Assembly: GCA_024875585.1 (NCBI GenBank)
Contig: GCA_024875585.1_4107.1
DNA from: a phage
Direction: 5' to 3' (one strand)
DNA length: 64,000 nucleotides
This document shows positions 6,069 through 54,336 of this stretch, one piece after another. Position 1 is the first letter of the stretch. The number at the start of each line of letters is the position of its first letter. A program made the position numbers and the translations under genes. The notes under the pieces were generated by a model. The model worked only from the letters and a program-made list of their open reading frames with translations. It did no database searches and was not told where the DNA came from.

Positions 6069-6605
6069 ATGTTAGATAAAAAAATGAACACTGGAACTCT
6101 ATACAATCATCTTAAGTTGGATACTTTCGAATCAGCTATCAGTACTGCACAAGATATTATCGATATTATTAAGTACATTAAAGAAAATAAGTTAAAATGT
6201 GTGAAAACACCCGAACGTACAATGTATAAAGATGACTGTATTCACGTATCTGTTGTTAATCCAAAAGATAAGGATGGTAATAGAGATTTCTATAATAACA
6301 GTGAGCAGTTCGAATGTGAATATGATCCAGAATTCAGAGGTGGTTTCATGTGTTACAGTATGAAGGATACCTCACACATTGAGATACGTTCATCTAAAGG
6401 TGGCATACGTACATTAGAGTTCATTGATATAGTTTTAAATCAGGAATACTACTTTCAACTATCATTATTGTTTCCTGCATACGATTTAGGAGTTCTATTC
6501 ATGTATAAGTACTTTCATGAGCACTGGAATGAAGACTTCTATCTGGACTTAGAAGATTACCAATTAGTTTGGGAAGAAATGGTAGAACTTCGCAACCACT
6601 CTTGA
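6069..6605 (+). CDS. family-A protein (QEYYFQLSLLF)
   Basis: ORF; ATG 6069 after GAGG; motif. Confidence 0.6.
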   Translation: MLDKKMNTGTLYNHLKLDTFESAISTAQDIIDIIKYIKENKLKCVKTPERTMYKDDCIHVSVVNPKDKDGNRDFYNNSEQFECEYDPEFRGGFMCYSMKDTSHIEIRSSKGGIRTLEFIDIVLNQEYYFQLSLLFPAYDLGVLFMYKYFHEHWNEDFYLDLEDYQLVWEEMVELRNHS

Positions 6606-6631
6606 CACCCACCGATTTTTTGTGATATAAT
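6602..6631 (+). promoter_or_regulatory. sigma70-type promoter TTGACA-N18-TGaTATAAT (extended -10)
   Basis: TTGACA 6602-6607, TG 6623-6624, TATAAT 6626-6631, in the intergenic gap before ORF 6665; followed by a 5'UTR hairpin ccctttata...taaaggg. Confidence 0.6.
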
Positions 6632-6664
6632 CCCTTTATATTAATTTTAAAGGGTTATAACACA

Positions 6665-7141
6665 ATGTCCAACGAACTCACATTCACCAATGCACAAAAA
6701 ATAGCAAAAGACATTATCAGGGTTTATAAATTCCTTGCGAATGTTACTGAAGATTTTTTAATTGATAAAAATAAAGTTATTAAGCGAAATGGATACCTTT
6801 CCTTTATGGATGGGTTGCTCTATAGTTCAGATGAGTCAGCTTGTAGTATTAGAGTACTTGATACTGTACCAAGTGGTGATTTTATTTCATACCATTTTCC
6901 AAGTTCAGATAAGTTCAAATACTACAATAGTATTCTCATAGCAGAAGACTTTGATACGATTGTAATTAACACTGAAGAAGAGTTCTTCCAGTACAGTACT
7001 GTGTACCCAGAGAGGATTGTTTTCAGTTCAGTGATTTACACTACCCTTAAAAATGAACTAAATTCCGATAGTGATCATTTCTACTTGGACCTGAATAATA
7101 TCGATTGTATTATTGAGTACATGGAGAAAAATGGTTTATGA
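6665..7141 (+). CDS. family-A protein (EEEFFQYSTVY)
   Basis: 158-aa ORF, motif. Confidence 0.65.
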   Translation: MSNELTFTNAQKIAKDIIRVYKFLANVTEDFLIDKNKVIKRNGYLSFMDGLLYSSDESACSIRVLDTVPSGDFISYHFPSSDKFKYYNSILIAEDFDTIVINTEEEFFQYSTVYPERIVFSSVIYTTLKNELNSDSDHFYLDLNNIDCIIEYMEKNGL

Positions 7142-7641
7142 TTACTACAGAATATGATTACAATAGTGTCCTTGAATTTGCAGAAAATATATATCGTATT
7201 GCAAAGGAGTTCAGAAGTCCTGAGCCGTTTGGTGGTATGTTCGAATACGATGAGTTTAGTTCATCAAAAGGAAGACTTGCATTTACTAATGGTAGAGGTA
7301 ATCAAATCTACACAGAGTACTTTGATGACAATGACTTTCATCACAAAGCCGAATACATTTCATATTGCCCTGGGTCTGATTTGAAGATTCATATTGAAAG
7401 AGATATAGAAAATGTATTTGTTCCATATACTGATTTAGTCTTCATGTCAGAGGAAATGTACTTTCAGGAATCATTGATTCATGATACAAAAGTACTTAAT
7501 ACTATATTATTATATGGTACACTACTTAATCATTACAAATACAATCAAAGATTCTTTTTAGATTTAGTAGTATACCATCAATGTGTGGATTATTTGAATG
7601 CAAAATCAGACAACAATTCAGTACATGACCGATGGTTCTGA
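7138..7641 (+). CDS. family-A protein (EEMYFQESLIHD)
   Basis: 167-aa ORF, ATGA overlap, motif. Confidence 0.65.
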   Translation: MITTEYDYNSVLEFAENIYRIAKEFRSPEPFGGMFEYDEFSSSKGRLAFTNGRGNQIYTEYFDDNDFHHKAEYISYCPGSDLKIHIERDIENVFVPYTDLVFMSEEMYFQESLIHDTKVLNTILLYGTLLNHYKYNQRFFLDLVVYHQCVDYLNAKSDNNSVHDRWF

Positions 7642-7960
7642 ATACTTTGTTTCAAGATATGTAATAAATCACAACCATTATGTAACCTATATTCCAGAGT
7701 ACAATCAATTTTATATCCAGATTTATCAACATAATGGAAAGAGAAATGATATATATTCAGAAATAAAAATCCCTGATTATAGTTCTTTATCAGAAGAGGA
7801 ATTGTTTCAGGAGAGCACTATCAGTACTGAAGATGTGTACGAAATAATGGAGTACCAGAAGGTACTTAAACATTTTCATGAAACAAATGATATACAAATA
7901 GATATTGTTAAACCGTGGTGTTACAATACATATGAGGTAAATTATGTTAGAAATGATTAA
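7625..7960 (+). CDS. family-A-like protein (EEELFQESTIS)
   Basis: ORF; start at ATG 7625 overlapping the previous stop. Confidence 0.55.
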   Translation: MTDGSEYFVSRYVINHNHYVTYIPEYNQFYIQIYQHNGKRNDIYSEIKIPDYSSLSEEELFQESTISTEDVYEIMEYQKVLKHFHETNDIQIDIVKPWCYNTYEVNYVRND

Positions 7961-10468: not shown

Positions 10469-10497
10469 TTTACAAGAGCATTCAGGTGTGTTATACT
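10469..10497 (+). promoter_or_regulatory. sigma70-type promoter TTTACA-N17-TATACT with upstream TG
   Basis: TTTACA 10469-10474, TATACT 10492-10497, between a terminator and the next ORF. Confidence 0.5.
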
Positions 10498-13736: not shown

Positions 13737-13741
13737 ATTTA

Positions 13742-13768
13742 TACCAGGGGTTGACTCTGGTATTTTTG
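13742..13768 (+). terminator. rho-independent terminator
   Basis: hairpin taccag-gggttgact-ctggta then TTTTT. Confidence 0.55.
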
Positions 13769-13797
13769 TATGATACATTATCCTAAAGGAGAATTTT

Positions 13798-17851: not shown

Positions 17852-18325
17852 ATGGAGATTAAAACTGTTGAAAATGGGAAAATTGATGACATTTTAGACT
17901 TGGACGCATTCAAAGTTCATGATATAATGTTTAATGTGAAGGACATTATTCAATGTCTGTTTTTATGCAGCAAGACTATGCATGATTTTTTTCACAACCC
18001 GAATACTAATGTTTTTATACTTACAATCAGTACTGAAAACTCGTTCATCATGGGTATGCCCATGAGTACAAATGAACAGTATATTGATTGTGTTATTCGC
18101 AATAATGATTGTATTACCCCACAATCTGAAGTTCGCAAAAAGAAAAACACTTACACAATCAAAGATGATAAAATCATGATGTGTTGCAGTAAAGGATTTA
18201 TATTGGACAATTTCATCGTCAAAGATAGTTATCATGACTTTAAAATTTCCGAAAATCAATCCAATGTAGTTCTTTATGCTAGTGATATCGAAAGTTTAAC
18301 AGTCAAAGATCCTAGTTTGGAGTAA
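17852..18325 (+). CDS. hypothetical protein
   Basis: 157-aa ORF with AAGGATAG RBS. Confidence 0.55.
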   Translation: MEIKTVENGKIDDILDLDAFKVHDIMFNVKDIIQCLFLCSKTMHDFFHNPNTNVFILTISTENSFIMGMPMSTNEQYIDCVIRNNDCITPQSEVRKKKNTYTIKDDKIMMCCSKGFILDNFIVKDSYHDFKISENQSNVVLYASDIESLTVKDPSLE

Positions 18326-18488: not shown

Positions 18489-19337
18489 ATGTTGGACATT
18501 TCAGATTTTCTTAATTTTAAAAAGTATTCAGTACTTGAACATATCAACGAATTTCTGAATTCCCCAACACCATTTGGTATCAGTACATCAGATTCATACG
18601 ATGGATATAGAATCTTCCCATGCAATGACTTTCAAATTTCTGTCAAAAAAGGTTTTACAAAAGAAGTTGCAATTCGTGATGTAGTAATGTATAGCGATTC
18701 TTCTATTTCTTACTGTCATGATGTGAACAATTTTGAATCTCTTTCAACACCTAATTGTTCATACTACAAATCCCATGACACGATGATGTATAAAGAACAA
18801 CATATCAATGGTGTTTCGTTCTACAAAACTAGCAGTGATAAATCATATACATCTAGAGATGATTTTGGAAAATACACATGTACTATGCACACGGATAATG
18901 AAAAAACAAATTACACTCATTCATTCGAGTCCAAATTCCAAGAGAGTGAAGTTTCAAATATCACTATACAAGAACAGGTTTCAGAAGGCATTGTATATCG
19001 TAGTACTGCATTCTTTCGCATGAAAGATGTTGCCACAGGCAGACCAATGATGTACAATATTGACATATACATGAAAGGTGATATATCAGAAGTAGTGATT
19101 AGTACTGGTTATCGTGAAAAATATACAGTTACAATGGAATCACCAGATGCATCGTTAGTTCACCTCTTTAACAATTTATATACATTCCAATTCGAACTTA
19201 GTTTAGACTACAATGAATATCAAATATTCGATATATTAAAAAGTAATATTATTAATAAGTTAGAATATTACTACAAGTTAGGTGGTAAGATGTGCATAGT
19301 TAATACTATGTTACATAACATAAAAGAAACATTATAA
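18489..19337 (+). CDS. hypothetical protein
   Basis: ORF; ATG 18489 after GAGGA. Confidence 0.6.
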   Translation: MLDISDFLNFKKYSVLEHINEFLNSPTPFGISTSDSYDGYRIFPCNDFQISVKKGFTKEVAIRDVVMYSDSSISYCHDVNNFESLSTPNCSYYKSHDTMMYKEQHINGVSFYKTSSDKSYTSRDDFGKYTCTMHTDNEKTNYTHSFESKFQESEVSNITIQEQVSEGIVYRSTAFFRMKDVATGRPMMYNIDIYMKGDISEVVISTGYREKYTVTMESPDASLVHLFNNLYTFQFELSLDYNEYQIFDILKSNIINKLEYYYKLGGKMCIVNTMLHNIKETL

Positions 19338-19353
19338 ATCTGGAGGATTTGGT

Positions 19354-19647
19354 ATGGATACTAAATTCAAAATTATTTTTAAAACTAAGCCGTATATTCC
19401 ACATACAGCAGAACGTTTTATACCACATGATGCAGAGGAAATTATTCATCAAGATGGTACAAAGTTATATCTAGTGCCATGTTCATATGAACGTGCAGTA
19501 GAAATGTTACTCATGAATTCTAAATTATGTACAAACAAGTACATTAGTTACTTATATAATGAACATATTTTAGATTTTAATGATGAAAATATGTTTATTC
19601 TGGCAATTGAAGATTTTAATAATTGGTACAACATTATTAAAATCTGA
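19354..19647 (+). CDS. hypothetical protein
   Basis: 97-aa ORF with GGAGGA RBS. Confidence 0.55.
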   Translation: MDTKFKIIFKTKPYIPHTAERFIPHDAEEIIHQDGTKLYLVPCSYERAVEMLLMNSKLCTNKYISYLYNEHILDFNDENMFILAIEDFNNWYNIIKI

Positions 19648-19654
19648 TAAAATA

Positions 19655-19685
19655 TTGTGAACATATTAAATCTTTATGATATAAT
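19655..19685 (+). promoter_or_regulatory. promoter with extended -10 TGATATAAT flanked by an inverted repeat
   Basis: TTGTGA 19655-19660, TGATATAAT 19677-19685; inverted repeat tgtgaacat / atgttcaca brackets the -10. Confidence 0.5.
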
Positions 19686-19717
19686 GTTCACATCTTTTTT
19701 TGATAATGGAGATATAG

Positions 19718-20104
19718 ATGAATACAAGTTCAATCCTAAAAGCAATTGGTGGTGTTTTACTTATTGAAGTGAAAGGTGAACCAAAACTGTGCTGTTTGGA
19801 AGATATGAAGAATACAAAACACTTCAGTACTGGTCAGATTTTTAATGCCATTCGTGTTCTAAATGATAAATCAATCGCTGATTATGGTAAAGTTTGGCCT
19901 GTATATCAAAACGCAGATGGTGATATCAGTTCTGACTGGAAAACCATTGAAGCAGTCCGACAAAGTTGTGATAGCGACTGGGACTTCATTGTAGAAGTAT
20001 GTGACCAACTTCAAGAAGATGTACCAGAAATTGTGGAACGAAAGGAAGTTCTGGCAAATCTAGAAAAGTTCCGTCATGGAACACTACCATATGATACAAT
20101 CTAA
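19718..20104 (+). CDS. hypothetical protein
   Basis: 128-aa ORF. Confidence 0.55.
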   Translation: MNTSSILKAIGGVLLIEVKGEPKLCCLEDMKNTKHFSTGQIFNAIRVLNDKSIADYGKVWPVYQNADGDISSDWKTIEAVRQSCDSDWDFIVEVCDQLQEDVPEIVERKEVLANLEKFRHGTLPYDTI

Positions 20105-20154
20105 TCTACTTATTAAAAAATAGCTAGTTAACATTATATAAAAAGGAATTTAAA

Positions 20155-20460
20155 ATGGAAGATAATGGAATGAAATTTGATATGTTTGAGGGTGTACCTG
20201 AGTTTGATTTTAACAAACTAGAAAATGGTGAAGAGTCAGAACTCGTTAGTGTTACACTTAAAGCAGATTCTAAAAAGAAATATTCATCAACGGTACGTTC
20301 ACGTTCACAAGAAGAATATGAATCTTTCATTGAAAGTATTCATTATGAAACATTATATCATAAAGATGGAACTCCATATGAAGTACGTGTAACAGTACTG
20401 AAGCCTGAAGTGAATCCAATGGAAAATCTACGTCCTGTTTACTGCTGGGCAAGTCACTAA
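20155..20460 (+). CDS. hypothetical protein
   Basis: 101-aa ORF with AAAGGAA RBS. Confidence 0.55.
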   Translation: MEDNGMKFDMFEGVPEFDFNKLENGEESELVSVTLKADSKKKYSSTVRSRSQEEYESFIESIHYETLYHKDGTPYEVRVTVLKPEVNPMENLRPVYCWASH

Positions 20461-20469
20461 TAAACCAAT

Positions 20470-20498
20470 GGACGGGATTTCATATCTCGTCCTTTTTT
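20470..20498 (+). terminator. rho-independent terminator
   Basis: hairpin ggacg...cgtcc then TTTTTT. Confidence 0.55.
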
Positions 20499-20511
20499 AT
20501 ATGGAGATTTT

Positions 20512-21366
20512 ATGAAACTTTATCTAATAGTTGACTATAATAAAGAATATGCTGGAAATTTTTCTGAAGATTCAGAAGGACATTGTACCTCTACTAATGT
20601 TAATGTGCGTTCCAGTAATACACATGAGCATGAATCAATTACTAATCTAAAAAATTTCATCACATATCGAGCCTTTGAAACCAATTTTTGTCGTTCGAGA
20701 TATTCTAAGTTTGAGTACCCATTAATTGATGTTCCTGATGAATTGATGTTCCAGCTAATGTTAACTGGAGTTCAAGATTATGATTATATTGCTTATAATC
20801 ACATAACAAAGAAGATTTACATTGGAACATCAGTACACGATACTTCCATGTATGCATCATGCCCAGATGATCGAATGAAGCATAGAAATTCATACTATAG
20901 TGGATCAGTTGGTTCAAATAATTCATCAAATAAAAATTCATTCTTTGAGTACGTGTATGATTACCATCACGAGAAAAAAGAACGTGAAGATTACTGTATA
21001 GAGATTGATAGTACTAATGGATATGAAGACGTAAAAGAAGCTCTTATGCCATACATTATAGAAAAATACTACAAAGATTTTCAGTACTGTAGTAATTTTC
21101 TAATCAGAAATTCTATTCAAATCGGTCGTCAATCCACTGCATACGCTATGTACTACAGTGATTCTCCAGTTGTAGCAGGAAATGAAAGGGGTGATATCCT
21201 ACCAATTCCACGTGAAGATATGACATTCATTTTTACATCTTTTATTGAGGATGATGAATTGTACGTTAAAAATAAGCATCGTTTCATGCCAAGTAAAATT
21301 GAGATTATTAGAAGCATCAGTGTTGATATATTAACCAATTTTACTGAAAAAACTGAATATAACTGA
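20512..21366 (+). CDS. hypothetical protein with family-A-like motif (DELMFQLMLTG)
   Basis: 284-aa ORF with GGAG RBS. Confidence 0.6.
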   Translation: MKLYLIVDYNKEYAGNFSEDSEGHCTSTNVNVRSSNTHEHESITNLKNFITYRAFETNFCRSRYSKFEYPLIDVPDELMFQLMLTGVQDYDYIAYNHITKKIYIGTSVHDTSMYASCPDDRMKHRNSYYSGSVGSNNSSNKNSFFEYVYDYHHEKKEREDYCIEIDSTNGYEDVKEALMPYIIEKYYKDFQYCSNFLIRNSIQIGRQSTAYAMYYSDSPVVAGNERGDILPIPREDMTFIFTSFIEDDELYVKNKHRFMPSKIEIIRSISVDILTNFTEKTEYN

Positions 21367-21383
21367 GACAAAATAGAAGTTAA

Positions 21384-21392
21384 TGATATAAT
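21384..21392 (+). promoter_or_regulatory. TGATATAAT extended -10 element
   Basis: same 9-mer as other intergenic promoters; directly abuts a terminator-like hairpin. Confidence 0.3.
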
Positions 21393-21396
21393 GTGA

Positions 21397-21426
21397 GGTG
21401 ACAGTATATACTGTCACCTTTTTTTA
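21397..21426 (+). terminator. strong rho-independent terminator
   Basis: perfect palindrome ggtgacagtatatactgtcacc followed by TTTTTTT. Confidence 0.8.
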
Positions 21427-21994
21427 ATCCTGAAAGGTTCCTATAAGGAAATGATTAAAAGCCTAATCCACTCGAAAATGTAGAGGGTAGATGAGTAGTC
21501 CTTTCAGTACGAACAGCAGATGAAACCCGTTAGATGATGGCATAGTTTGAACCACTCACGGCAATGCGGCTGTATAAAGAACTCCAATAGGATAAAGAGA
21601 GTTCCTAGATAGACATATAAGGATCGCACCTTACCAATTATCTAAGGGAGATTTCATAAGAAATATGCGGTCGGAATTATACAATATAGTTGCGTCCAAA
21701 TTTTGTGAAATCAAATACAAGTACTGGTCATATGGTATTTGTATTATGTGTCGGGATGTTTAAGACCGACGACCGTTGCTACAAGAACCGCGATAGAGAG
21801 AAACAGAGCAACCCGCTTTCGTCTCGTAAGAGAATTCGTGATATGAACTATGTGAAGGCCACCAGCGTCAAACTTTTTTGTTCTTTCCCCTGCGGGGGGG
21901 GATGAAATATGCTCAAGCAAACCTCGTCAATATTAATTAAAAGACTTTATAATACTTGTAGAATTGTACATGCACCGCATGGAGAATTCTACTG

Positions 21995-22591
21995 ATGTTG
22001 ATTACATCAACATCACGTATATTCATTGATGTTTCCATAGGAATAATGATGGCATTTATTAAAAAAGAAAAAACTATTACTTATAAAACTTTGAATTTTG
22101 ATGATTGTATTAATCAATCACAGGACGAAAATATTTTTACTGGATATGTGGTTATTAAAGAAAAAGGATGCATTTCTTATATAAAGGAATTGCAAAATGG
22201 CATTGAAGTCACTTCAGTTAAATTACTTCCTACACAAAAACCAACAATATCAAAAGCCCAGTACGGTAATTATTTCGAGGAAAGATACAGTAATAATTTA
22301 ATAAGTGTTAAAGCTCATATTGTAAAAGGAGAACTAGAAGGAGAATATAGAAAATTCAACCCACAAGGAAAATGTGTTTGGGTTAAATACTACAATTCAG
22401 GTGTTGATATAACATCTGAAATTATAGAGTTCTTAGGGTTGTCATGTACACCTGAAACTCTTCATGACTACAAATTTAATACTGAAGAAGAGTTTAATCT
22501 GATGATGCGTTATGGATCACATTTTAAATTTTTATATGAATATAACGTTGACAGTAGTATTTTTGATAAAATAGTACATAACTGTCTATAA
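21995..22591 (+). CDS. hypothetical protein with MORN-like G.Y..F...G repeats
   Basis: ORF; start uncertain (alternative ATG 22046 has an AGGAA RBS). Confidence 0.5.
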   Translation: MLITSTSRIFIDVSIGIMMAFIKKEKTITYKTLNFDDCINQSQDENIFTGYVVIKEKGCISYIKELQNGIEVTSVKLLPTQKPTISKAQYGNYFEERYSNNLISVKAHIVKGELEGEYRKFNPQGKCVWVKYYNSGVDITSEIIEFLGLSCTPETLHDYKFNTEEEFNLMMRYGSHFKFLYEYNVDSSIFDKIVHNCL

Positions 22592-22607
22592 CAAAAGGAT
22601 TTATATA

Positions 22608-23129
22608 ATGTCGAAGAAGGATACTTCGAATAAGCACTCAGTTCATTTCAGTACTGGAAAAGATAACTGGACAACCCCAAAAGATTTTTTTGAAGATTTA
22701 GATGAGTTATGGGGATTTACACTTGATGCTGCTTGTGTAGATGAGACTGCATTGTGTGATAATTTTTTCACTCCAGAAGATGATTCACTGTCACAGGATT
22801 GGGGAAATAATATAGTTTGGTTGAATCCACCATATAGTGACTTAAAAACATGGTTATCTAAAGCTGTAGATGCATATAATAACGGAGCAACTGTAGTTAT
22901 TCTTGTACCCTCAAGAACCGATACAATTGCTTTTCAGGATTATGCTGCTAAAATATGTGATTGTATTTGTTTTATTAAGGGAAGATTGCGATTTGGTATA
23001 CCAGAAGAACCCGATAAGAAAACTGATTCAGCACCATTTCCTTCGTGTCTGATAGTTCTGGATAAGTACTTAACCACTGCTAAAATCAATTGTCTTAAAT
23101 CTCTCGGATTGGTGATGAAGAATTTATGA
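22608..23129 (+). CDS. DNA N6-adenine methyltransferase (phage Dam family)
   Basis: N-terminal W-T-TP motif (DNWTTPKDFF) and catalytic NPPY (VWLNPPYSD); AAGGA RBS. Confidence 0.7.
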   Translation: MSKKDTSNKHSVHFSTGKDNWTTPKDFFEDLDELWGFTLDAACVDETALCDNFFTPEDDSLSQDWGNNIVWLNPPYSDLKTWLSKAVDAYNNGATVVILVPSRTDTIAFQDYAAKICDCICFIKGRLRFGIPEEPDKKTDSAPFPSCLIVLDKYLTTAKINCLKSLGLVMKNL

Positions 23130-23659
23130 AAGAAACATGTATATTATCATTTATGAGATGTAACCCAGTCCACAATGGACATGGTTTAGTTTTTGAAAAG
23201 GCCAAAACATTACAAGAACAGTACAATGCTGATTTAAAAATTTATCTAAGCACTAGTACTGACAATATAAAAAACCCACTACCACCTGAACTAAAAATGT
23301 ATTATACAGAGGGATTCTATCCTTCAGTGCAAGAGAACATCTACACAGAGGACAATCTATTTGATATAATGAGAGAACTGGATGGAAAGTACTTAGATGT
23401 TCTCTTCATATGTGGTTCTGACCGTATTGATTCTTTTCAGAAAACCCTTGACACTTACAATGGGAAGTTGTATAATTTTTGTAATATAAAAGTAATTCAA
23501 GCAGGTATTGACCGCCAATCAAGTCGATATAGCTCAACACAAATGCGTAAGTTTGCCAAAAATGAAGATTTTGATAGTTTTCGTGAGTTTTTGCCTGGAA
23601 ATGACGAGAACTTAAAAATTCAATTATTTGAAGATGTTATAAAATACATGAGGAAATAA
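23126..23659 (+). CDS. nucleotidyltransferase (NMN/NaMN adenylyltransferase-like, HxGH superfamily)
   Basis: F-x-x-x-NP-x-H-x-GH motif (SFMRCNPVHNGH) and SxTxxR motif (SSTQMR); ATGA overlap with the methyltransferase. Confidence 0.55.
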   Translation: MKETCILSFMRCNPVHNGHGLVFEKAKTLQEQYNADLKIYLSTSTDNIKNPLPPELKMYYTEGFYPSVQENIYTEDNLFDIMRELDGKYLDVLFICGSDRIDSFQKTLDTYNGKLYNFCNIKVIQAGIDRQSSRYSSTQMRKFAKNEDFDSFREFLPGNDENLKIQLFEDVIKYMRK

Positions 23660-27193: not shown

Positions 27194-27458
27194 AGTTCTT
27201 ATTGCTGAAACAATGAAGATGATTTACTTTATTACTACGGCACAGGATTTGTCTTATCCAGTGAAATCGTTACTTAGGTCAATGTATCTTGATATTGTAA
27301 AAGAATATTATAAATCTAAACACAGAAGCATTATTAGTGTTTATCGTGATTATGAAAGGATTCGTATTTTATTCTGGAACAAGAATCGAGTACGTTCTGA
27401 ATGTGATCTAGTAGATTTTAAATTAGAGAATCTTTATTGCTATAAACAGGAACAATAG
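27174..27458 (+). CDS. hypothetical small protein
   Basis: ORF; start ATG 27174. Confidence 0.45.
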   Translation: MTNTTNEVLIAETMKMIYFITTAQDLSYPVKSLLRSMYLDIVKEYYKSKHRSIISVYRDYERIRILFWNKNRVRSECDLVDFKLENLYCYKQEQ

Positions 27459-27467
27459 TTTAATTCA

Positions 27468-27476
27468 TGATATAAT
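27468..27476 (+). promoter_or_regulatory. TGATATAAT extended -10 promoter element
   Basis: intergenic, upstream of ORF 27517 (AAGGAG RBS). Confidence 0.45.
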
Positions 27477-30424: not shown

Positions 30425-31563
30425 CCCTTTTGCAAATATATGAAGATTTAATGCACTTGTGCAATACAAACGATGCGTTCTTTTATGTGGATCATAAAAG
30501 TCCTGCTGGTGGAACGTATCGTGTATTCAGTTATCGTCTAGCATCATATACTGATTTCATGCAACCCAATGCATTAGAAACCCGTGGATCTATGTGGGAA
30601 ATTGATGAAGAAGGTAATATGATTCGTTGTGCTGCTCGTACTATGAAAAAGTTCTTTAATGCTTACGAGAATCCTGCTACAATGTTCCCTGCTAACACCA
30701 CATGCGATGACATTGCAGTAGTGATGCCTAAATTGGATGGTTCAGTGATCAGTACTTACCGTGACAATGATGGTGAGATTCGTTGTAAATCACATACTGC
30801 ATTGTATTCTGACCATGCGATTAACAGTACTCGACTTATTAACGAGAACCAGAATCTATATCAGTACATCGATGAAGCTGAACGTTTAGGTTACACAGTT
30901 AATATGGAGTATACAAGCCCAGAGTACCGAATTGTATTACCGTATCAGGTAGAACAATTGTTTGTGCTGAACGTTCGTCATCGTGTAAGTGGTGAGTTGC
31001 TATGTGGTAAAGCATTACGTGATAAGTTTCCATGTCTTTCACAGTACAGCACTAATATGACAGGAAAAGATATTCATCACACTTTTCCTGTGCGAAATTC
31101 ATTCCGTGAAAGCGTTGATGAAGTTCATAAAATGCTTGACATTGAGGGTTTTGTTTGCATTTTAAAAGATGGGACAATGTGTAAAATAAAGACTGACTGG
31201 TACAGTTCATTACATCTTACAAAAGATAGTATTATTATTGATTCTCATTTATATGAAGCTGTATTAAATGGTTCAAGTGATGATTTAAAACAATTGTTCA
31301 GTTCTGACGAATATGCTATGCAAAAGATATTAAGAATGGAACAGTTGGTTTTTTCGTGCTATAATGCATTACAAGATGAAGTAGAAAGCTTCGTCAATGA
31401 ACACAAGCACTTAGAGCGAAAGGAATTCGCATTGAAGGTTCAGACGTGCTTATCTAGTGAACTGAATCGTCAGGGCTTGGCATTTGCAATGTATAATAAT
31501 AAGAAAGTTGATTACAAAGATACACTTATCAAATACATGAAAATTATACTAAAAGATTTTTAG
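30421..31563 (+). CDS. rnlA: RNA ligase 1 (T4 gp63/RnlA-like)
   Basis: 380 aa; N-terminal GGTYRVFSY...ALETRG and KxDG adenylation motif (MPKLDGS), laid out as I recall T4 Rnl1. Confidence 0.88.
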   Translation: MTLLQIYEDLMHLCNTNDAFFYVDHKSPAGGTYRVFSYRLASYTDFMQPNALETRGSMWEIDEEGNMIRCAARTMKKFFNAYENPATMFPANTTCDDIAVVMPKLDGSVISTYRDNDGEIRCKSHTALYSDHAINSTRLINENQNLYQYIDEAERLGYTVNMEYTSPEYRIVLPYQVEQLFVLNVRHRVSGELLCGKALRDKFPCLSQYSTNMTGKDIHHTFPVRNSFRESVDEVHKMLDIEGFVCILKDGTMCKIKTDWYSSLHLTKDSIIIDSHLYEAVLNGSSDDLKQLFSSDEYAMQKILRMEQLVFSCYNALQDEVESFVNEHKHLERKEFALKVQTCLSSELNRQGLAFAMYNNKKVDYKDTLIKYMKIILKDF

Positions 31564-34917: not shown

Positions 34918-35223
34918 ATGGATATACAAACATTCAATAAACTAAAGTACTATGATAATGGTTTTGTATTAATAATTAACGAACTTGATAGTATACCATA
35001 CGAATATCATAATCAAGTAATGAATATAGTAAAAAATATATGTGAAGAACTAAAAAGTATATTTAAAAATGAATATGTTTATGATTTAGGTAATAATAGA
35101 ACAAAACTATACATAAAGAAATTCTGGGGAACACATTGTGGTTTGATGGTCGATTTGGGTTTAAGTTTAGACAATAATTTCGAATCATGTTCATTATATT
35201 TGGACGAAATGAGAATCTCATGA
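34918..35223 (+). CDS. hypothetical small protein
   Basis: 101-aa ORF. Confidence 0.5.
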   Translation: MDIQTFNKLKYYDNGFVLIINELDSIPYEYHNQVMNIVKNICEELKSIFKNEYVYDLGNNRTKLYIKKFWGTHCGLMVDLGLSLDNNFESCSLYLDEMRIS

Positions 35224-35240
35224 GACATAAGGACATTCGG

Positions 35241-35249
35241 TGATATAAT
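35241..35249 (+). promoter_or_regulatory. TGATATAAT extended -10 promoter element
   Basis: intergenic, upstream of ORF 35281. Confidence 0.45.
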
Positions 35250-42942: not shown

Positions 42943-42971
42943 TTGGACATTTTAAATCTTAGTGATATAAT
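42943..42971 (+). promoter_or_regulatory. sigma70-type promoter TTGGAC-N17-TATAAT with extended -10 TGATATAAT
   Basis: intergenic, upstream of clpP. Confidence 0.55.
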
Positions 42972-43005: not shown

Positions 43006-43701
43006 ATGGTTGAACAATTCAATTTTGGTGGTTATGCTAATGGTGAAGTAAGTAACATTTCTATTCCGTATGTAGTTGAAAAAGTTAATGGTTCAGAGCG
43101 TACATATGATCTAGCATCTCGTATGATGCAAGACCGTATCATTTTCCTTGATACTGATTTCAATGACCAGATGGCACATATCATCAAACAACAATTGGTG
43201 TGGTTAGACTCACAAGGTGATTCCCCTATTACATTCTATATTAGTTCACCAGGTGGTTCAGTACATGCAGGTTTGGGCATCGCTGATATTGCTAAATCTT
43301 GTGTATCACCAATCCGTACTGTAGTAATGGGTTATGCAGCATCAATGGGGTGTTATACACAATCTGTTATTGGGACTAAAGGTTTCCGTTTGGGTGGTAA
43401 ACGTTCCTACTTCATGTGTCACCAAGTAAGTTCTGGTACGAAAGGTCTAATTACTGACCAGAAAATTTCACTTAAACATTCTGATGAACTGAACACGTTG
43501 CTGACGAAAGAAATCGCTGAAGCTGTTGGCGTTTCTCATGAACAACTACTGAAAGATGCAGACCGTGATTTGTGGTTGAATGCTGAAGAAGCACTCGAAT
43601 ATGGTGAAAAAGGATTTATCGATGGTATTATCCTTGGACCACGCAACGAGAAAGGTCAATACCTAGTCAAGCGTCGTGGTGGTGTTGAAGAGTGGGTTTG
43701 A
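43006..43701 (+). CDS. clpP: ClpP-family serine protease
   Basis: strongly resembles the bacterial ClpP core as I recall it: SSPGGSV, GYAASMG (catalytic Ser), MCHQ (His), ADRD (Asp); GAGGA RBS. Confidence 0.85.
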   Translation: MVEQFNFGGYANGEVSNISIPYVVEKVNGSERTYDLASRMMQDRIIFLDTDFNDQMAHIIKQQLVWLDSQGDSPITFYISSPGGSVHAGLGIADIAKSCVSPIRTVVMGYAASMGCYTQSVIGTKGFRLGGKRSYFMCHQVSSGTKGLITDQKISLKHSDELNTLLTKEIAEAVGVSHEQLLKDADRDLWLNAEEALEYGEKGFIDGIILGPRNEKGQYLVKRRGGVEEWV

Positions 43702-46073: not shown

Positions 46074-48746
46074 TTACGCACTGATTGTTACAGTTGCAGT
46101 ATCTTTTTTATTACCATCCACAGTAGTCACTGTAATGATTACAGAACCTTCTTCTAGAGCAGTTACTAATCCATCATCACTAATAGATACTTTAGTAGGT
46201 TCATCTGCACTATAAGTTACTGATTTGTTAGTTGCTTTAGCTGGAAGAACTTCAGGAACTAGTTGAACTGTTTTAGTTCCTGATAGTGAAAGTTCAGTAG
46301 TTTTAGGTGTTAAACTAACACTGGATACTGGAACTGGAATATTAACGATTACTGATGTTTGACCAGTAACATCACTACCATCAGCGGCAGTAGCGATAAT
46401 ATTTGCAGTACCATTAGTTAGTGCAGTTACGATACCAGTATTAGCATCTACTTTAGCAATTTCTGGAGCACTGGATGACCAAATTACTTTTTTATTGGTT
46501 GCATTACTTGGGGTAATTGCAGCAGTCATCTGTTTAGTTGCATTCAATGTAGTCAAAGTTTGATCTTTAGGAGTTACATCAATTGCAGTTACTGGCACTG
46601 GAATATTAACAGTAATAACACCTTGACCTGTTTTACCACTTCCATCAGCAGCAGTTGCGATAATGTTTGCAGAACCGTTAGTTAACGCAGTTACAACACC
46701 AGTACTAGCATCTACTTTCGCTACAGCAGGTTTACTGGAAGACCATGTTACAGATTTATTTGTTGCGTTAGTTGGAAGAACTTCAGCAGCCATTGCTTGA
46801 GTTGCGTTAACAGCAGTCAATGTTTTAGTTGCTGGAGTAACATTAATAGATGCGACTGGAACTGGAATTGCTACAGTTACCGCACATTTTGCAGTTTTTG
46901 CTCCATCAGCAGTTGTTACTGTGATATCAGCAGTGCCATTTGCTACAGCAGTGATTAAACCAGTTGGACTAACAGTTGCCACTCCATCAGCAGAAGTACT
47001 ATAAGTTACTGCTTTGTTGGTAGCATTAGGTGGTAGTACAGTTGGTGTTAGTTGTTGAGTATCACCGACTGAAGTTAATTTAGCACTTGTTGGAGATACT
47101 GATACACTTGCAACAGGAACTGGAATATTAACATTTACCACGCAAACTTTAGTAAATCCACCATCAGATGTGGTTGCTGTAATATTTGCAGTACCGTTTG
47201 CAACAGCAGTGATTAAACCAGTTGGACTTACCGTTGCGACACCCTCAGCAGAAGTAGTGTATGAAATATCTTTACGACGAGCGTTATCTGGAATAACAGA
47301 TGCAGTTAGTTGTTGAGTAGCACCTACAGAAGTTAGGGTTGCTGTCAACGGAGTCATATTAATACCAGTTACTGGGATCGTTACATCAATCACTGATTCA
47401 GCAGTTTTAGCACCATCATCAGTGGTAACAGTAATAGTTGTAGTACCGTTATCAACCGAAGTTACTAGACCAGTATTGCTAACTTTTGCCACGTCTGGAT
47501 ATGAAGAAACATATGAAACTGCTTTATTGGATGCAGTTGTAGGAGCAACGGTTGTTTCTAATTGTTTAGTATCACCTAATGTTGAGAATGTATAAGTACT
47601 AGGAGTCATAGTGACACCAGATACAGGTGTTTTCACAGTGATAGTAGTAGTATCAGTTTTAGCACCATCTTCGGTTGTTGCTGTAATCACCACTGTACCG
47701 TTAGCAACACCAGTTACTAGACCAGAAGTAGGGTTAACAGTTGCTATATCAGGTGTTGCTGAAGACCACGTGACGTTTTTATTAGTTGCATCATCAGGAG
47801 ATATTGTAGCAGTTAATTGTTGAGTACCGCCAACGTTAATTGTTGCAGTTTTAGGAGAAACAACAACACCACTAACTGGAGTTGTTACAGTAACAGTACA
47901 TTTTGAAACAAATATGCCATCAACAGTAGTTGCAATTACATCAGTACTACCATCTGCAACACCAGTTACCATACCAGATGGACTTACAGTTGCGACGCGT
48001 GGTATACTAGATAACCAATTAACACGTTTATCACTTGCATCATCGGGTGATACGGTAGCTGTTAGTTGTTGAGTTTTACCAACACTAAGAGATAGAGTTG
48101 AAGGAGAAACAACAACACCACTAACTGGAGTTGTTACGGTAAATGCACAAACATCAGTGAAACCACCATCATGAGTAGTAACTGTTACATTTGCGTTACC
48201 ATTAGCACGGGCAATTGCTAAACCAGTTTGAGCATCAACTTCAACAATTGTTGGAGCAGAGGAACTATAACTTACTGTTTTATCATTTGCATAATCTGGA
48301 TCAATTGTAGCTGATAGCTGTTGTGTACTACCAACTTTAAGTGCTACTACTTTAGGTGAAATAATTACACCATCAACTGGAGTAGTATAATCACGTTTAA
48401 CCACACGACCATTGTTCAATTTAATAATACGACCCATATAAAGAGTAGTATATCCTTTACTAATCCCATCATCTACATAAATCATGAATGAATTGTCTTG
48501 AACCATATTAATTGCGTCTACTGGTTTAACGGAATTTGGAATGTCGATACCACGGGTATCATACCAACACATGGAAACTTTGTAATAGATATCACCATTA
48601 TCATTTATGAGATCATAAACGTTACTGGAACGTTGACGGTTAATATATAAAGTTTCGGTTAACACCTTACCATCGATTTTAGCGACAGAAACTTTAATAC
48701 CACCAATACCAAATGGCAATTTACCTTCACTAGATATTGCTTTCAT
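46074..48746 (-). CDS. Ig-like (Big_2) repeat virion surface protein, Hoc-like or adhesin-like
   Basis: 890 aa; unique N-terminal ~120 aa followed by about nine ~85-aa repeats (VSGVVVSP...TQQLTAT..PDDA..K.V.WSS...ATV...GLVTGVANGT); only long minus-strand gene; AAGGA RBS. Confidence 0.7.
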   Translation of the reverse strand: MKAISSEGKLPFGIGGIKVSVAKIDGKVLTETLYINRQRSSNVYDLINDNGDIYYKVSMCWYDTRGIDIPNSVKPVDAINMVQDNSFMIYVDDGISKGYTTLYMGRIIKLNNGRVVKRDYTTPVDGVIISPKVVALKVGSTQQLSATIDPDYANDKTVSYSSSAPTIVEVDAQTGLAIARANGNANVTVTTHDGGFTDVCAFTVTTPVSGVVVSPSTLSLSVGKTQQLTATVSPDDASDKRVNWLSSIPRVATVSPSGMVTGVADGSTDVIATTVDGIFVSKCTVTVTTPVSGVVVSPKTATINVGGTQQLTATISPDDATNKNVTWSSATPDIATVNPTSGLVTGVANGTVVITATTEDGAKTDTTTITVKTPVSGVTMTPSTYTFSTLGDTKQLETTVAPTTASNKAVSYVSSYPDVAKVSNTGLVTSVDNGTTTITVTTDDGAKTAESVIDVTIPVTGINMTPLTATLTSVGATQQLTASVIPDNARRKDISYTTSAEGVATVSPTGLITAVANGTANITATTSDGGFTKVCVVNVNIPVPVASVSVSPTSAKLTSVGDTQQLTPTVLPPNATNKAVTYSTSADGVATVSPTGLITAVANGTADITVTTADGAKTAKCAVTVAIPVPVASINVTPATKTLTAVNATQAMAAEVLPTNATNKSVTWSSSKPAVAKVDASTGVVTALTNGSANIIATAADGSGKTGQGVITVNIPVPVTAIDVTPKDQTLTTLNATKQMTAAITPSNATNKKVIWSSSAPEIAKVDANTGIVTALTNGTANIIATAADGSDVTGQTSVIVNIPVPVSSVSLTPKTTELSLSGTKTVQLVPEVLPAKATNKSVTYSADEPTKVSISDDGLVTALEEGSVIITVTTVDGNKKDTATVTISA
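46150..48400 (-). repeat. tandem ~250-270-bp coding repeats (Ig-like domain units)
   Basis: recurring DNA blocks such as actggaactggaat...gcagtaccatt within the Big_2 gene. Confidence 0.6.
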
Positions 48747-48782
48747 ATACTTTCCTTTATAAATTGTATTGTATTGTTATAT

Positions 48783-48790
48783 TATTTATA
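48783..48790 (-). promoter_or_regulatory. T4-type late promoter TATAAATA
   Basis: exact TATAAATA on the minus strand about 40 nt upstream of the Big_2 start codon. Confidence 0.55.
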
Positions 48791-49058
48791 TTATAACAAA
48801 ATTATTTTAGTATTAAAAAGGAGTTCTAATGTTCCTTTATATTTTAAAGGAACATACTGTGTAAATCTGGTTTGGTCAGGTAAATCTTTCGGAGAGAAGG
48901 AAGTAGTGAATGACATTTTATCATTAAAATCATCTCCTTACCTTTAAAATAGAATTGTAAACTGCCTCCTAATATGATACCATAGTTCAAATGGTAAATC
49001 AATGAACTTAACAAAAAAAACACTTGATACTACAGTCATAATTGTTCAGTTTTTGTGC

Positions 49059-49087
49059 TTGACATAATTAATCAATTATTGTACTAT
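49059..49087 (+). promoter_or_regulatory. sigma70-type promoter TTGACA-N17-TACTAT
   Basis: in the divergent intergenic region upstream of ORF 49123. Confidence 0.5.
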
Positions 49088-49122
49088 TAATAATGTTCCT
49101 TAACTCAAATCCGAGGTAATTA

Positions 49123-49796: not shown

Positions 49797-50057
49797 ATGA
49801 CAAACATCCAGAATTTGACGTCTATTATTTTTTATGCTACAGTGGTGATGTATGCTATTGTACTTATTTTAACAGTTTTTATTTACAAAGATTACAAAAA
49901 AGGCTTTATTAATAGTACAACAATGAAGTTCAATTCTAAATTTGAAGCAATTATATTTTATGTTTTGACAACATCATATTTGTTGTGTATAATGTTACTA
50001 GGGTCATTGATTTATATTTTATATACAACATTATTTGCAATTGGAGCTATTTTATGA
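49797..50057 (+). CDS. small membrane protein (3 predicted TM)
   Basis: 86-aa hydrophobic ORF. Confidence 0.45.
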   Translation: MTNIQNLTSIIFYATVVMYAIVLILTVFIYKDYKKGFINSTTMKFNSKFEAIIFYVLTTSYLLCIMLLGSLIYILYTTLFAIGAIL

Positions 50058-52170: not shown

Positions 52171-52179
52171 GAGTTTAAC

Positions 52180-52500
52180 ATGTCTTACTCAATGTTTTTG
52201 GATGATATCCGTGATGCAAATCTATATTATCCAAACCAAGATATGGTGGTATGTCGTGACTTTAAAAGTGCATGTGAATATGTTATTGAAAATGGAATTC
52301 CAGCATTTGTATCATTCGACCATGACTTGGGTGATGTGAGCGAAGACGAAAAGACTGGATATTCTTTTGCTAAGTTTCTTATTGATTATATGTTTGATAA
52401 TAATATTAAAGAACCGTTTGAGTACTTTGTTCACAGTAGTAATCCTGTTGGTAAAATTAATATTGAAACATACTTAAACAATGGGTTTAACGCATTATGA
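52180..52500 (+). CDS. hypothetical protein (possible receiver-like fold)
   Basis: 106-aa ORF; acidic DD...SFDHDLGD pattern. Confidence 0.4.
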   Translation: MSYSMFLDDIRDANLYYPNQDMVVCRDFKSACEYVIENGIPAFVSFDHDLGDVSEDEKTGYSFAKFLIDYMFDNNIKEPFEYFVHSSNPVGKINIETYLNNGFNAL

Positions 52501-52799
52501 TTCAAACACACATCAAAAGTCTTATTTGTACTGTTCTGTTAGGTGTAGGTGTTCTTTGGTTCGGATATTATCACGAGAACACTAAGCGTACTAACATTCA
52601 CTACAATACCGCAGAAGTTGTTAGTTTAGGGCAATGTAGTGAGTCAAAATGTGCATTTACGTACAAAACCAGTAATGGTGAAATACGTAATGGACTATCA
52701 AGAGAACCAGTTTCGATTGGTCAACTTGTTTACCAGGAGTGCTGGGAAGAAAAGGTTCGAGGTTCACGTTGCTATGTTGAATACGAACCAAATATGTAA
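52497..52799 (+). CDS. small membrane-anchored protein
   Basis: 100-aa ORF with N-terminal TM helix. Confidence 0.5.
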   Translation: MIQTHIKSLICTVLLGVGVLWFGYYHENTKRTNIHYNTAEVVSLGQCSESKCAFTYKTSNGEIRNGLSREPVSIGQLVYQECWEEKVRGSRCYVEYEPNM

Positions 52800-52859
52800 T
52801 AATCCAAGTCAATAACATTAGTCGAGTACAAGGATGTACTCATAACTCAAGGATGTTTT

Positions 52860-54299
52860 ATGAAAAAATATACAATTGACACAAACGTACTACTATCTGA
52901 TCCAAATGCGTCTGTTGCTTTTGATGGTGCTGCAATCATTCTACCATTTACAGTACTGGAAGAATTGGATTCGATTAAGAGTCGCAATGTTGATGTTTCA
53001 CGTGATGCTCGTGTTGCGATTCGTAACATTGAAGCAATTATTGCAGAGGCATCACATAATGAGATTAGTTGTACTGGTGTTAATATTGCTGATGTTCATA
53101 CCAATATGAATCCTGATAGCAAATTGTTTGTTATTACAACCGAAGAAGCTGAGGCACTAATTCGTACTAAAGGTTCAGACGAGAAAGTTCAAACCCTTCT
53201 TAAAAGTACTGTACCTGATGATAAAATTATTCTGGTAGCTTTAGCAACCGAATCAGTACTGGTAACTCGTGATATCAACATGCGTATCAAAGCACTAAGT
53301 TATGGTGTCGAGGTACAAGACTATCGTCATGATATTGTTATTGGTGATAGTGATTTGATGCACATTGGTCAACATCATTTGGAACTCAATTTTTGGGATG
53401 TATATAGCAATTTAGCAAATACAAATATTAAAACTGAACAAATTGGTCGTCGATTGTATCATTACATTCCTAAAAGCTTGATTGGTCATTTACTTCCACA
53501 AAATCTATGCATTGGTGATTATCTATATGATGATGCTGATGTATTATTTGTATATGAAGGCCAATCAGCCATTGAGGAAGATGATGGCACACTAACACCA
53601 GAAGATATTTTGGTATTCCAAGACATTGGTCAATCTGTAGCTTTGCGTGCTAAAGTATGGGATATTAAAGCAAAGAATATTCAACAAGCACTTGCAATCA
53701 ACAGTATTCTCGATCCTGATGTACACCTAACAGTGCTGCTAGGTTCTGCTGGAACTGGCAAAACATTAATTACGATTGCTACTGCACTAGAGTTAGTACT
53801 GGAAAAACGCAAATACGACCGTATTATCTTCTCTAAAACACAAGATTCACAGTTTGAAGATATAGGATTCTTGCCAGGTTCTGAGACAGAGAAAGTTATC
53901 CCATTCTGTGGACCTGCAATTGATGCTCTTGAGTATCTTCATAAAGATGATGTATCACCACAAGGTAGCATCGAAGAGATTCTCAAACGTAACGTGATGC
54001 AATTTAAAGCATTGAACTTTATTCGTGGTCGTTCTTTTGCCAATACAATTCTAATTGTGGATGAAGCACAGAACTTAACACCAGCCCAGTTAAAAACTGT
54101 CTTGACAAGAGCCGGAGAAAACTGTAAAGTAATCATACTTGGTAACCTAGCACAGATTGATAACAAGTTTATCAGTCCAGTAAACAGTGGTTTGACATAT
54201 GTAACTGAAAAATTCAAGGATTGGAGTGGTTGTCGTATCATTGAATTAGAAGGTGTTGTTCGTTCACCACTTGCTGAATTTGCTGAAGAAAATATGTAA
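52860..54299 (+). CDS. phoH: PhoH-like ATPase with N-terminal PIN domain
   Basis: PIN-like N-terminus (YTIDTNVLLSDP...LEELD); Walker A GSAGTGKT and Walker B IVDEAQN. Confidence 0.85.
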   Translation: MKKYTIDTNVLLSDPNASVAFDGAAIILPFTVLEELDSIKSRNVDVSRDARVAIRNIEAIIAEASHNEISCTGVNIADVHTNMNPDSKLFVITTEEAEALIRTKGSDEKVQTLLKSTVPDDKIILVALATESVLVTRDINMRIKALSYGVEVQDYRHDIVIGDSDLMHIGQHHLELNFWDVYSNLANTNIKTEQIGRRLYHYIPKSLIGHLLPQNLCIGDYLYDDADVLFVYEGQSAIEEDDGTLTPEDILVFQDIGQSVALRAKVWDIKAKNIQQALAINSILDPDVHLTVLLGSAGTGKTLITIATALELVLEKRKYDRIIFSKTQDSQFEDIGFLPGSETEKVIPFCGPAIDALEYLHKDDVSPQGSIEEILKRNVMQFKALNFIRGRSFANTILIVDEAQNLTPAQLKTVLTRAGENCKVIILGNLAQIDNKFISPVNSGLTYVTEKFKDWSGCRIIELEGVVRSPLAEFAEENM

Positions 54300-54327
54300 T
54301 ATAATATGGGATGTACTGTCCCATACA

Positions 54328-54336
54328 TGATATAAT
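54328..54336 (+). promoter_or_regulatory. TGATATAAT extended -10 promoter element
   Basis: intergenic, upstream of ORF 54368; preceded by inverted repeat atggga-tgtactg-tcccat. Confidence 0.45.

Follow-up and report, generated by a model that had tools for sequence, protein, structure and literature searches.

The phage contig GCA_024875585.1_4107.1, analysed here over a stretch of 64,000 nucleotides (nt) that is called the window throughout, carries recurring copies of the 9-mer TGATATAAT, a σ70-type extended −10 element. The window belongs to an Asteriusvirus, a jumbo coliphage resembling 121Q, PBECO4, phAPEC6 and UE-S1 within the RaK2-like group, and megablast of the window gave 95-98% identity to phage UE-S1 and ~91% to 121Q. 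Its G+C content is 31-36%, and nearly all of its ~120 small open reading frames (ORFs) lie on the + strand. Promoter features are absent from the annotation tables of UE-S1, 121Q, Turkey5 and Munch. For comparison, the complete 121Q genome was put together from nine fetched pieces, and the sites were aligned with their counterparts in UE-S1, 121Q, EC22.5-2, TH47 and Turkey5.

Extended −10 sites and their upstream box

The seven copies of TGATATAAT cited in the first-pass annotation, at 6623, 19677, 21384, 27468, 35241, 42963 and 54328, are all present and all fall between ORFs. A motif scan of the whole window yielded 13 exact matches, compared with 3.68 ± 1.81 expected from dinucleotide shuffles (n = 100, 0/100 reaching 13), and the recurrence is therefore non-random. 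Eleven matches are located on the + strand, which bears almost all genes, and two on the − strand; the hexamer TATAAT is strand-neutral in the window (73 vs 74), and TGnTATAAT is distributed 18 vs 5. The six matches that had not been reported lie at 17920, 23362, 25311 and 59569 on the + strand and at 20352 and 35253 on the − strand, the last being merely the other half of the palindrome TGATATAATttgATTATATCA. Every site contains an exact TGnTATAAT, and all sites of the class defined below lie on the gene strand at a distance compatible with a leader. The spacing to a start codon had also been described correctly for six of the cited copies, whose −10 elements end 31-40 nt upstream of a start codon preceded by a ribosome-binding site (mostly 14-35 nt for intergenic sites ahead of protein genes in 121Q), but no ORF follows the copy at 21384.

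The −35 region is where the sites depart from the σ70 consensus. TTGACA-like elements had been ascribed to some of them, yet a TTGACA-like hexamer at 17 ± 1 base pairs (bp), an optional element in the σ70 family, occurs only at 6623, where it reads TTGACA. When the remaining sites were aligned on the 9-mer, a hexamer GAGACA, GGAACA, TGGACA, TGAACA or TGGACG was found precisely 13 nt upstream of the TG, corresponding to a fixed 16-nt spacer to TATAAT. The resulting motif, K-R-R-A-C-R (consensus GGGACA), exactly 13 nt and TGnTATAAT, has seven matches in the window, all on the + strand, against 0.02 expected, and two of these, at 17901-17928 and 31338-31365, lie within genes and are absent from the first-pass annotation. 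With a gap of 13-14 nt, the 121Q genome contains 25 matches on the + strand and none on the − strand, against ~0.2 expected. The positional profile consists of an A-tract, T-G-G-G-A-C-A at −20 to −14 from the TG, 13 nt and gTGnTATAAT, and the base at −13 in the 25 sites of 121Q is A in 17, C in seven, T in one and G in none. The grammar of the class is thus an A-rich stretch, (t)GGGACA(a) with GAGACA, GGAACA, TGGACA or TGAACA tolerated, 13 nt (rarely 14), and TG-A-TATAAT.

Both parts of the motif are conserved among the relatives. Summed over the seven class sites, variable positions amount to 6/105 in the motif, 51/91 in the spacer and 492/1204 in the flanks, and conservation is significant at each site taken singly (p<0.05), with the best value (p=2e-6) at 42963 (Table 1). 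In view of the strand bias, intergenic position, stereotyped distance to the start codon, fixed-distance box and phylogenetic footprints, the identification of the TGATATAAT sites as genuine promoters with a σ70-type extended −10 is supported. Generic σ70 two-hexamer scans of three 20-kb pieces found no excess (121 vs 123, 115 vs 115 and 97 vs 110 expected), only terminators being enriched in these scans; because they do not exceed shuffles, such scans cannot validate or rank sites in AT-rich DNA. A scan for the extended −10 with one mismatch was discarded as a site finder, with 147 matches on both strands being too noisy. The matches at 23362 and 25311 were rejected as promoters, as they have no box and are conserved like their surroundings (p=0.57 and 0.63), with the TG at 25311-25319 (+) lost in TH47; the match at 20352-20360 (−) is likewise a chance coding match without a box at the required distance.

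Table 1. Promoter sites, associated hairpins and the structured RNA in the window. Variable positions refer to the aligned relatives.
Position	Strand	Feature	Elements	Context and conservation
6602..6631	+	TTGACA promoter, host-like or hybrid	TTGACA 6602-6607, 18-nt spacer, TGATATAAT 6623-6631; 12/12 consensus match	Gene start 6665; TTGACA and 9-mer invariant in UE-S1, 121Q, TH47 and EC22.5; 0/15 motif vs 4/15 spacer positions variable
10469..10497	+	Host-like promoter without exact 9-mer	TTTACA-N17-TATACT, TG 5' of it	Directly after a terminator
13751..13779	+	Host-like promoter, similar to 10469..10497	TTGACT, TACATT	TTGACT lies in a terminator loop
17901..17928	+	Class member, intragenic	TGGACG-N13-TGATATAAT	Within ORF 17852-18325; box, spacer and −10 almost invariant in five relatives; motif 0/15 vs flanks 38/172, p=0.03
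19656..19701	+	Inverted repeat followed by T7	TGTGAACAT/ATGTTCACA; −10.9 kcal/mol, z = −3.5	19-nt loop holds the −10
19658..19685	+	Class member	TGAACA-N13-TGATATAAT	Gene start 19718; TGGACA in TH47 and Turkey5; motif 1/15 vs spacer 9/13 variable
21365..21392	+	Class member	GAGACA-N13-TGATATAAT	No ORF 3'; structured RNA 3'; 0/15 motif vs 7/13 spacer positions variable
21396..21426	+	Hairpin with T7, from terminator scan	AGGTGACAGT/ACTGTCACCT; −16.7 kcal/mol	Begins 4 nt 3' of the −10
21399..21880	+	Structured non-coding RNA, ~480 nt	Predicted ends	Within a 628-nt gene-free gap after the 21384 promoter
23362..23370	+	Chance match in gene	Codons F-D-I-M	No box at required distance
27449..27476	+	Class member	GGAACA-N13-TGATATAAT (relatives GGGACA)	ATG 27517; 2/15 motif vs 10/13 spacer positions variable, p=6e-4
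31338..31365	+	Class member, newly found	GGAACA-N13-TGCTATAAT	In 3' part of RNA ligase gene; motif invariant in five relatives, 8/13 spacer positions variable; homologous 121Q site 202714
35222..35249	+	Class member	GAGACA-N13-TGATATAAT	GTG start 35281; −10 is half of palindrome 35241-35261; 1/15 motif positions variable
42944..42971	+	Class member, best footprint	TGGACA-N13-TGATATAAT	5' of ClpP-like protease gene 43006-43701 (Pfam CLP_protease); GACA and gTGATATAATACT kept in Turkey5 and TH47 despite 130/172 flank positions variable, p=2e-6
54305..54325	+	Hairpin without U-tract	TATGGGA/TCCCATA; −9.6 kcal/mol	Overlaps box and spacer
54308..54336	+	Class member, 14-nt gap	GGGATG (GGGACA in 121Q and TH47)-N14-TGATATAAT	Gene start 54368; different promoter in Turkey5: TTGACA-N16-TATAAT, TGC before hexamer, own 8-bp repeat around −10
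59569..59577	+	9-mer without GGGACA-like box	TGATATAAT	27 nt 5' of ORF 59605-60384

Hairpins and a structured RNA at the promoters

Inverted repeats of at least 9 bp occur at three of the eight sites, whereas the probability of a perfect repeat of this length in a random 81-nt window is P=0.028, and the repeats at the different sites have no sequence in common. The repeat reported around the −10 at 19677 is a perfect 9-bp one, with TGTGAACAT at 19656-19664 and ATGTTCACA at 19684-19692. The second reported repeat, TATGGGA (54305-54311) and TCCCATA (54319-54325), also exists, but instead of bracketing the −10 at 54328-54336 it lies wholly upstream of it. At 19656-19692, the arms of TH47 and Turkey5 carry transitions after which pairing persists as G·U, and the T-run downstream is conserved; because of these G·U-compatible changes and the conserved T-run, the element is better read as an RNA hairpin with a U-tract, probably a weak intrinsic terminator for the upstream gene and not an operator. 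The hairpin at 21396-21426, which shows compensatory changes among the relatives and an identical layout in the GAP32-type RNA copies, is a strong terminator for the upstream gene, and a fold from the predicted start at ~21399, where part of the 5' arm is missing and two unpaired nt precede the U-tract, retains −7.8 kcal/mol. Features of an intrinsic terminator are thus clear at 21396-21426, weak at 19656-19701 and lacking at 54305-54325, where the stem is kept in 121Q and TH47 and the loops differ. The palindrome at 35241-35261 has one mismatch in 121Q and three in TH47 and, as these mismatches accumulate in relatives, it is not maintained. No palindromic half-site shared among the sites and conserved as DNA was found. 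Because all of the hairpins include sequence upstream of the predicted start sites, they would form only in read-through RNA, and we interpret them not as operators but as probable terminators or 3' hairpins with which the promoters are fused. A further hairpin, CCCTTTA/TAAAGGG at 6632-6654, lies directly downstream of the −10 at 6623, with a U·G variant (CTCTTTA) in 121Q and TH47, and it too would form only in read-through RNA. Fusions of terminators and promoters recur as cassettes at 13741-13779 in the window and at 98719, 109300, 110582, 112750, 144916, 148601, 151899 and 153819 in 121Q, in which a −35 TTGACT lies within the terminator stem-loop (GGGTTGACTTCGGTCAGCCC and a T-run) and is followed by TGCTATAAT; their hairpin is that of the CBB terminators Torf515, Torf518 and Torf520.

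The promoter at 21384 precedes a structured RNA of a family present in three or four copies per RaK2-like genome. 121Q has four, at 90.3, 192.7, 247.5 and 326.6 kb, and paralogues of the window copy were delimited there, in coordinates of the fetched pieces, at L009 40296-40760, L012 10568-11110 and L013 39730-40220. Window and 121Q share 99.5% identity in the RNA core, compared with 91.6% overall for the 4-kb stretch that contains it (19000-23000). A conserved 28-nt pattern retrieved 26 RNA loci, all in known RaK2-like phages (121Q, GAP32, BF and Yen9-04) or in contigs with the same promoter types, and 23 of the 26 have an upstream promoter of their own lineage's type, the other three having too little upstream sequence or no exact match. 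In the RNA cores, cut out by promoter-to-pattern extraction, the consensus fold comprises 60 pairs in 14 helices, 35 of the pairs with compensatory changes and 97.4% of cells paired, and the score for covariation reaches 0.449, whereas shuffles give 0.151 (0/500 attain the observed value) and slid partners 0.06-0.08. Rfam returned nothing at gathering score in the whole window, and relaxed searches of 21300-22050 and eight related loci gave only terminator-like noise; the non-coding RNAs of PA5oct were dismissed as relatives, since according to the PA5oct paper they match nothing outside their own species. One of the 121Q copies lies directly downstream of the gene for the phage σ70-like factor discussed below, an arrangement that was looked for among the IMG/VR loci and found in 121Q only. 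In UE-S1, the RNA copy (L001 22456-22935) contains an apparent tandem duplication of ~55 nt, seen as two overlapping BLAST pieces. This multi-copy, strongly covarying large RNA, exposed as a by-product, merits a study of its own.

Promoter classes, timing and a candidate σ factor

Two kinds of promoters had been merged in the proposal of one host-σ70 early class: the site at 6623 carries TTGACA and the remaining cited sites do not. The σ70-type extended −10 of that proposal stands, but a single host-σ70 early class is not supported: TTGACA is missing from most sites, whose conserved GGGACA-like box is specific to the phage lineage; in 121Q the class fronts replication genes, tRNAs and the late-σ gene genome-wide; and promoters of the canonical TTGACA-N17-TATAAT type are packed into a block of their own, made up of tiny genes and lying outside the window. 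This block, at 137,500-155,700 in 121Q and upstream of the window-homologous part, consists of dozens of tiny genes with one TTGACA/TTGCAA-N17-TATAAT promoter each; the promoters have no properly placed TG, a conserved TTTACATC follows the −10, and the leader contains a GC-rich hairpin (GGGGAGAAnnGTTCTCCCC-like). It is likely the immediate-early block. Within the window, sites resembling this host-like type lie at 6623, 10469-10497 and 13751-13779, and at 10469-10497 both hexamers persist in TH47 and Turkey5, the −10 having become TATAAT. The targets of the GGGACA class in 121Q include ssb (two sites), primase, exonuclease, tRNA-Ser, ClpP, a ClpA-like gene and the gp55-like late σ gene (class site 321900, gene 321985), and the whole-genome scan found no GGGACA-class site on the − strand of 121Q, which bears the structural genes. 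Because the targets are typical of middle expression, the late σ gene among them, and a separate host-type block exists, the GGGACA class is probably middle rather than early.

Phage lineages differ in both the box and the −13 base: (t)GGGACA with TGA is the form in Asteriusvirus, Munch and several uncultured contigs, and TG(A/G)AAC(G/A) with TGG that in GAP32, CBB, BF and Yen9-04. Enterobacteria are the hosts in every case, so these differences are not accounted for by host σ70. A candidate reader is a phage σ70-family protein, the homologue of 121Q gp167, in which Pfam recognised regions 2, 3 and 4. It is encoded by all RaK2-like phages searched, with 35% amino acid identity between 121Q and GAP32/CBB and 59% between 121Q and the Ecwhy_1 group within Asteriusvirus; over Klebsiella Alcyoneusvirus and the Ecwhy_1 group, the identity ranges from 43 to 59%. 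In the helix of region 4.2, the positions aligned with R584/R588 of σ70 are R/H in 121Q, Ecwhy_1, SE_PL and KP13-7 and K/S in GAP32 and CBB; among the former, 121Q, Ecwhy_1 and SE_PL use GGGACA, and the single site seen in KP13-7 is TGAACA. The same region holds an inserted loop (GFVDDNGKYV). The σ gene of 121Q (89267-90232; L009 39267-40232, homologues L044-L048) evolves much faster than its neighbourhood, and the σ operon lies downstream of a TTGACA promoter at 84483. Group 2 jumbo phages, which lack an RNA polymerase, are thought to use their own σ factors (PMC7824862).

From these data we infer a mechanism in which host RNA polymerase core would associate with the phage σ70-family factor, whose recognition of the extended −10 would extend to the base at −13 and whose divergent region 4.2 would read GGGACA instead of TTGACA. 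Early in infection, host σ70 would act on canonical TTGACA-N17-TATAAT promoters, one of which precedes the σ operon; the phage σ would then transcribe, from the GGGACA class, replication genes, tRNAs, proteases, structured RNAs and the gp55-like late σ gene, after which the gp55-like factor would take over. Transcription is predicted to start ~7 nt downstream of the −10, giving leaders of ~25 nt where the start codon lies 31-40 nt downstream and, in one case, the structured RNA of ~480 nt as the product. The promoter-overlapping hairpins would act on read-through RNA as terminators or 3' hairpins, and transcripts started inside or beyond them would escape. Tentatively, RaK2-like phages may thus possess a three-step σ cascade with a private promoter grammar (box at −34 to −29, base at −13) that co-evolves with the σ helices, and with a middle regulon that includes the late σ gene and three to four large structured RNAs, each with its own promoter and one right behind the σ gene.

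Taken as a whole, the sites are best explained as a phage-specific bipartite promoter class, middle in timing and read by a phage-encoded σ factor, a reading to which we assign a probability of roughly 0.5. Transcription as an early class by unmodified host σ70 holoenzyme, with the GGGACA-like box as a weak −35 or a secondary optimisation (e.g. for ADP-ribosylated polymerase as in T4), is doubtful. It would accommodate the consensus TGnTATAAT, a box that keeps G, A, C and A of TTGACA at a σ70-usable 16-nt spacer (the sites score 10-11/12), the upstream A-tract like an UP element and the true TTGACA at 6623, and PA5oct, which relies on host polymerase, has TTGAC/TATAATA promoters (PMC7318152); it does not account for a box and a −13 base that are strictly kept within the genus and differ between genera whose hosts' σ70 are alike, for a separate canonical TTGACA class concentrated in the tiny-gene block of the same genome, or for downstream genes typical of middle expression, including the late σ gene. 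Retention of host σ70 with a MotA/AsiA-like phage activator on the GGGACA box at −30, replacing the −35 contact, is unlikely. Such σ appropriation would match the architecture of T4 middle promoters (PMC2988021 and PMC6755090), a σ70 −10, often with TG, plus a phage box at fixed distance, some group 2 jumbo phages reportedly have AsiA-like proteins (PMC7824862), and the box does vary with phage lineage; but its sequence is not that of the MotA box (TGCTTtA), homologues of MotA and AsiA did not turn up, although no search aimed at them was made, the lineage-specific base at −13, in DNA contacted by σ, would be left unexplained, and the complete RpoD-like σ of every member searched is a simpler candidate.

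Operator-type control, as suggested in the first-pass annotation, would have a dimeric repressor gate the promoters by binding the repeats at 19656-19692 and 54305-54325 and the palindrome at 35241-35261. This is highly improbable: although such repeats are over-represented and overlap the −35, −10 or +1, and at the 54328 locus of Turkey5 a different repeat, of 8 bp, surrounds the −10, they share no half-site, the arm transitions at 19677 preserve only G·U (RNA) pairing with a conserved T-run downstream, the repeat at 21396 is a standard terminator, the palindrome at 35241 decays in 121Q and TH47, and the stem at 54305 is kept while its loop varies, as in a hairpin. That the 9-mers are a functionless by-product of AT-rich composition or codon usage has a negligible probability, and a chance origin of the bipartite sites is already refuted by the statistics. 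Generic σ70 scans do lack an excess, and three or four of the 13 matches (23362, 25311, 20352 and the palindrome partner 35253, the latter two on the − strand) look accidental, but the shuffles, strand bias, intergenic location, fixed-distance box, cross-genome footprints and promoters at the RNA loci all speak against chance.

Several points weigh against a middle class read by the phage σ. The Pfam scores of its regions 2 and 4 fall just below the curated cut-offs; the contact residues named above are presumed ones, assigned by sequence alignment to σ70 and not from a structure; and the link between σ helix and box, which comes from a single phylogenetic split, is weak as covariation. No transcription-start or timing data for any Asteriusvirus were found in the searchable literature. 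Since E. coli σ70 needs no more than a perfect extended −10 in vitro, the host factor may use the sites at once, and in T4 the early promoters are transcribed with unmodified σ70 despite a −35 that departs from the host consensus. The two classes are also not fully separate, because 6623 carries both TTGACA and TGATATAAT, although the site itself is of host-like or hybrid type and outside the GGGACA class.

The analysis provides a precise, testable promoter grammar for widespread 350-kb coliphages that are under therapy development and whose records lack promoter annotation. Host-type early promoters are now set apart from the phage-specific class, a candidate reader, the phage σ70-like factor, is named, and specificity is proposed to depend, in the promoter, on the box at −34 to −29 and on whether −13 is A or G and, in the protein, on the helix residues that align with R584 and R588 of σ70. 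The fusion of several promoters with terminators bears on the prediction of transcription units.

Some other features of the window were observed in passing. The only long − strand gene (46074-48746) encodes 890 amino acids with nine Big_2 immunoglobulin (Ig)-like domains; 121Q has at this place just a 125-amino-acid Ig-domain virion protein (gene 471), and the flanking region, including 48747-49122, has no match in the relatives compared. TTGACA-N17-TACTAT lies at 49059-49087 ahead of a second ClpP-like gene, and a perfect TTGACA-N17-TATAAT (12/12) at 49965-49993, within ORF 49797-50057 and just upstream of an HslV-like protease gene, is a possible internal host-type promoter. The stretch around the 9-mer at 59569 has no homologue in 121Q, Turkey5, TH47, EC22.5-2 or Munch, and the flanking ORFs have no Pfam match. 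The segment 59306-60384, with two ORFs of 96 and 259 amino acids and no Pfam match, may be a mobile insertion, as it has no match in these five phages and its gene order is unlike that of 121Q.

Relation to known promoter systems

The class is the counterpart, in Asteriusvirus, of the promoters termed 'divergent RpoD-like' that were predicted in CBB and GAP32 (TGAAACG-N13-TGGTATAAT). In CBB, 18 'RpoD-like' promoters cluster in a block of small genes, and a second, 'divergent' class, TGAAACG-N13-TGnTATAAT, precedes DNA-synthesis genes and a gp55-like gene and is reported for GAP32 as well (PMC5259590). The register of 'Promoter 1' in CBB Table S6 and of its GAP32 counterpart is the same as here, a 7-nt box T-G-r-r-A-C-r, 13 nt and TGnTATAAT. 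The phages also agree in their membership of the RaK2-like group, in the DNA-synthesis and gp55-like σ genes downstream and in a dispersed class apart from the canonical small-gene-block set, as judged from the 121Q scan and the CBB text, and a divergent-type promoter precedes the structured-RNA copies of GAP32, BF and Yen9-04. The box sequence differs, however, TGAAACG there and GGGACA here, which makes the latter a lineage variant, and −13 is mostly G there and A here. The CBB/GAP32 class and the window class alike are in-silico predictions. No description of a GGGACA class for Asteriusvirus was found in the searchable literature; the RaK2 paper mentions neither promoters nor sigma, and the UE-S1 and fEgEco12 papers contain no promoter analysis.

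With the extended −10 promoters of E. coli σ70, the class shares TG at −15/−14, a perfect TATAAT, a short leader and an upstream A-tract, but it has a conserved GGGACA at a fixed 16-nt spacer instead of TTGACA at 17 ± 1, and its preference at −13 is strict, unlike that of E. coli σ70, which has no strict preference there. T4 middle promoters similarly combine a σ70-type −10, often with TG, with a phage-specific element that replaces the −35 at a fixed distance, precede replication genes, tRNAs and gene 55, and stand between early and late classes. Their element is, however, the MotA box TGCTTtA, which in the form (a/t)(a/t)(a/t)TGCTTtA near −30 was not found at any site, and a full RpoD-like phage σ is present here and absent from T4.

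Some phages encode σ factors of their own, which steer the host's core polymerase towards middle or late promoters (PMC8948821 and PMC12276001). Both phiEco32 gp36 and SPO1 gp28 act in this manner and resemble, in that respect, the phage σ proposed as reader of the GGGACA class. The promoters of phiEco32 consist of a −10 only, with a different consensus, whereas the class described here has the host consensus as its −10 and would owe its specificity to the −35 box and the −13 position.

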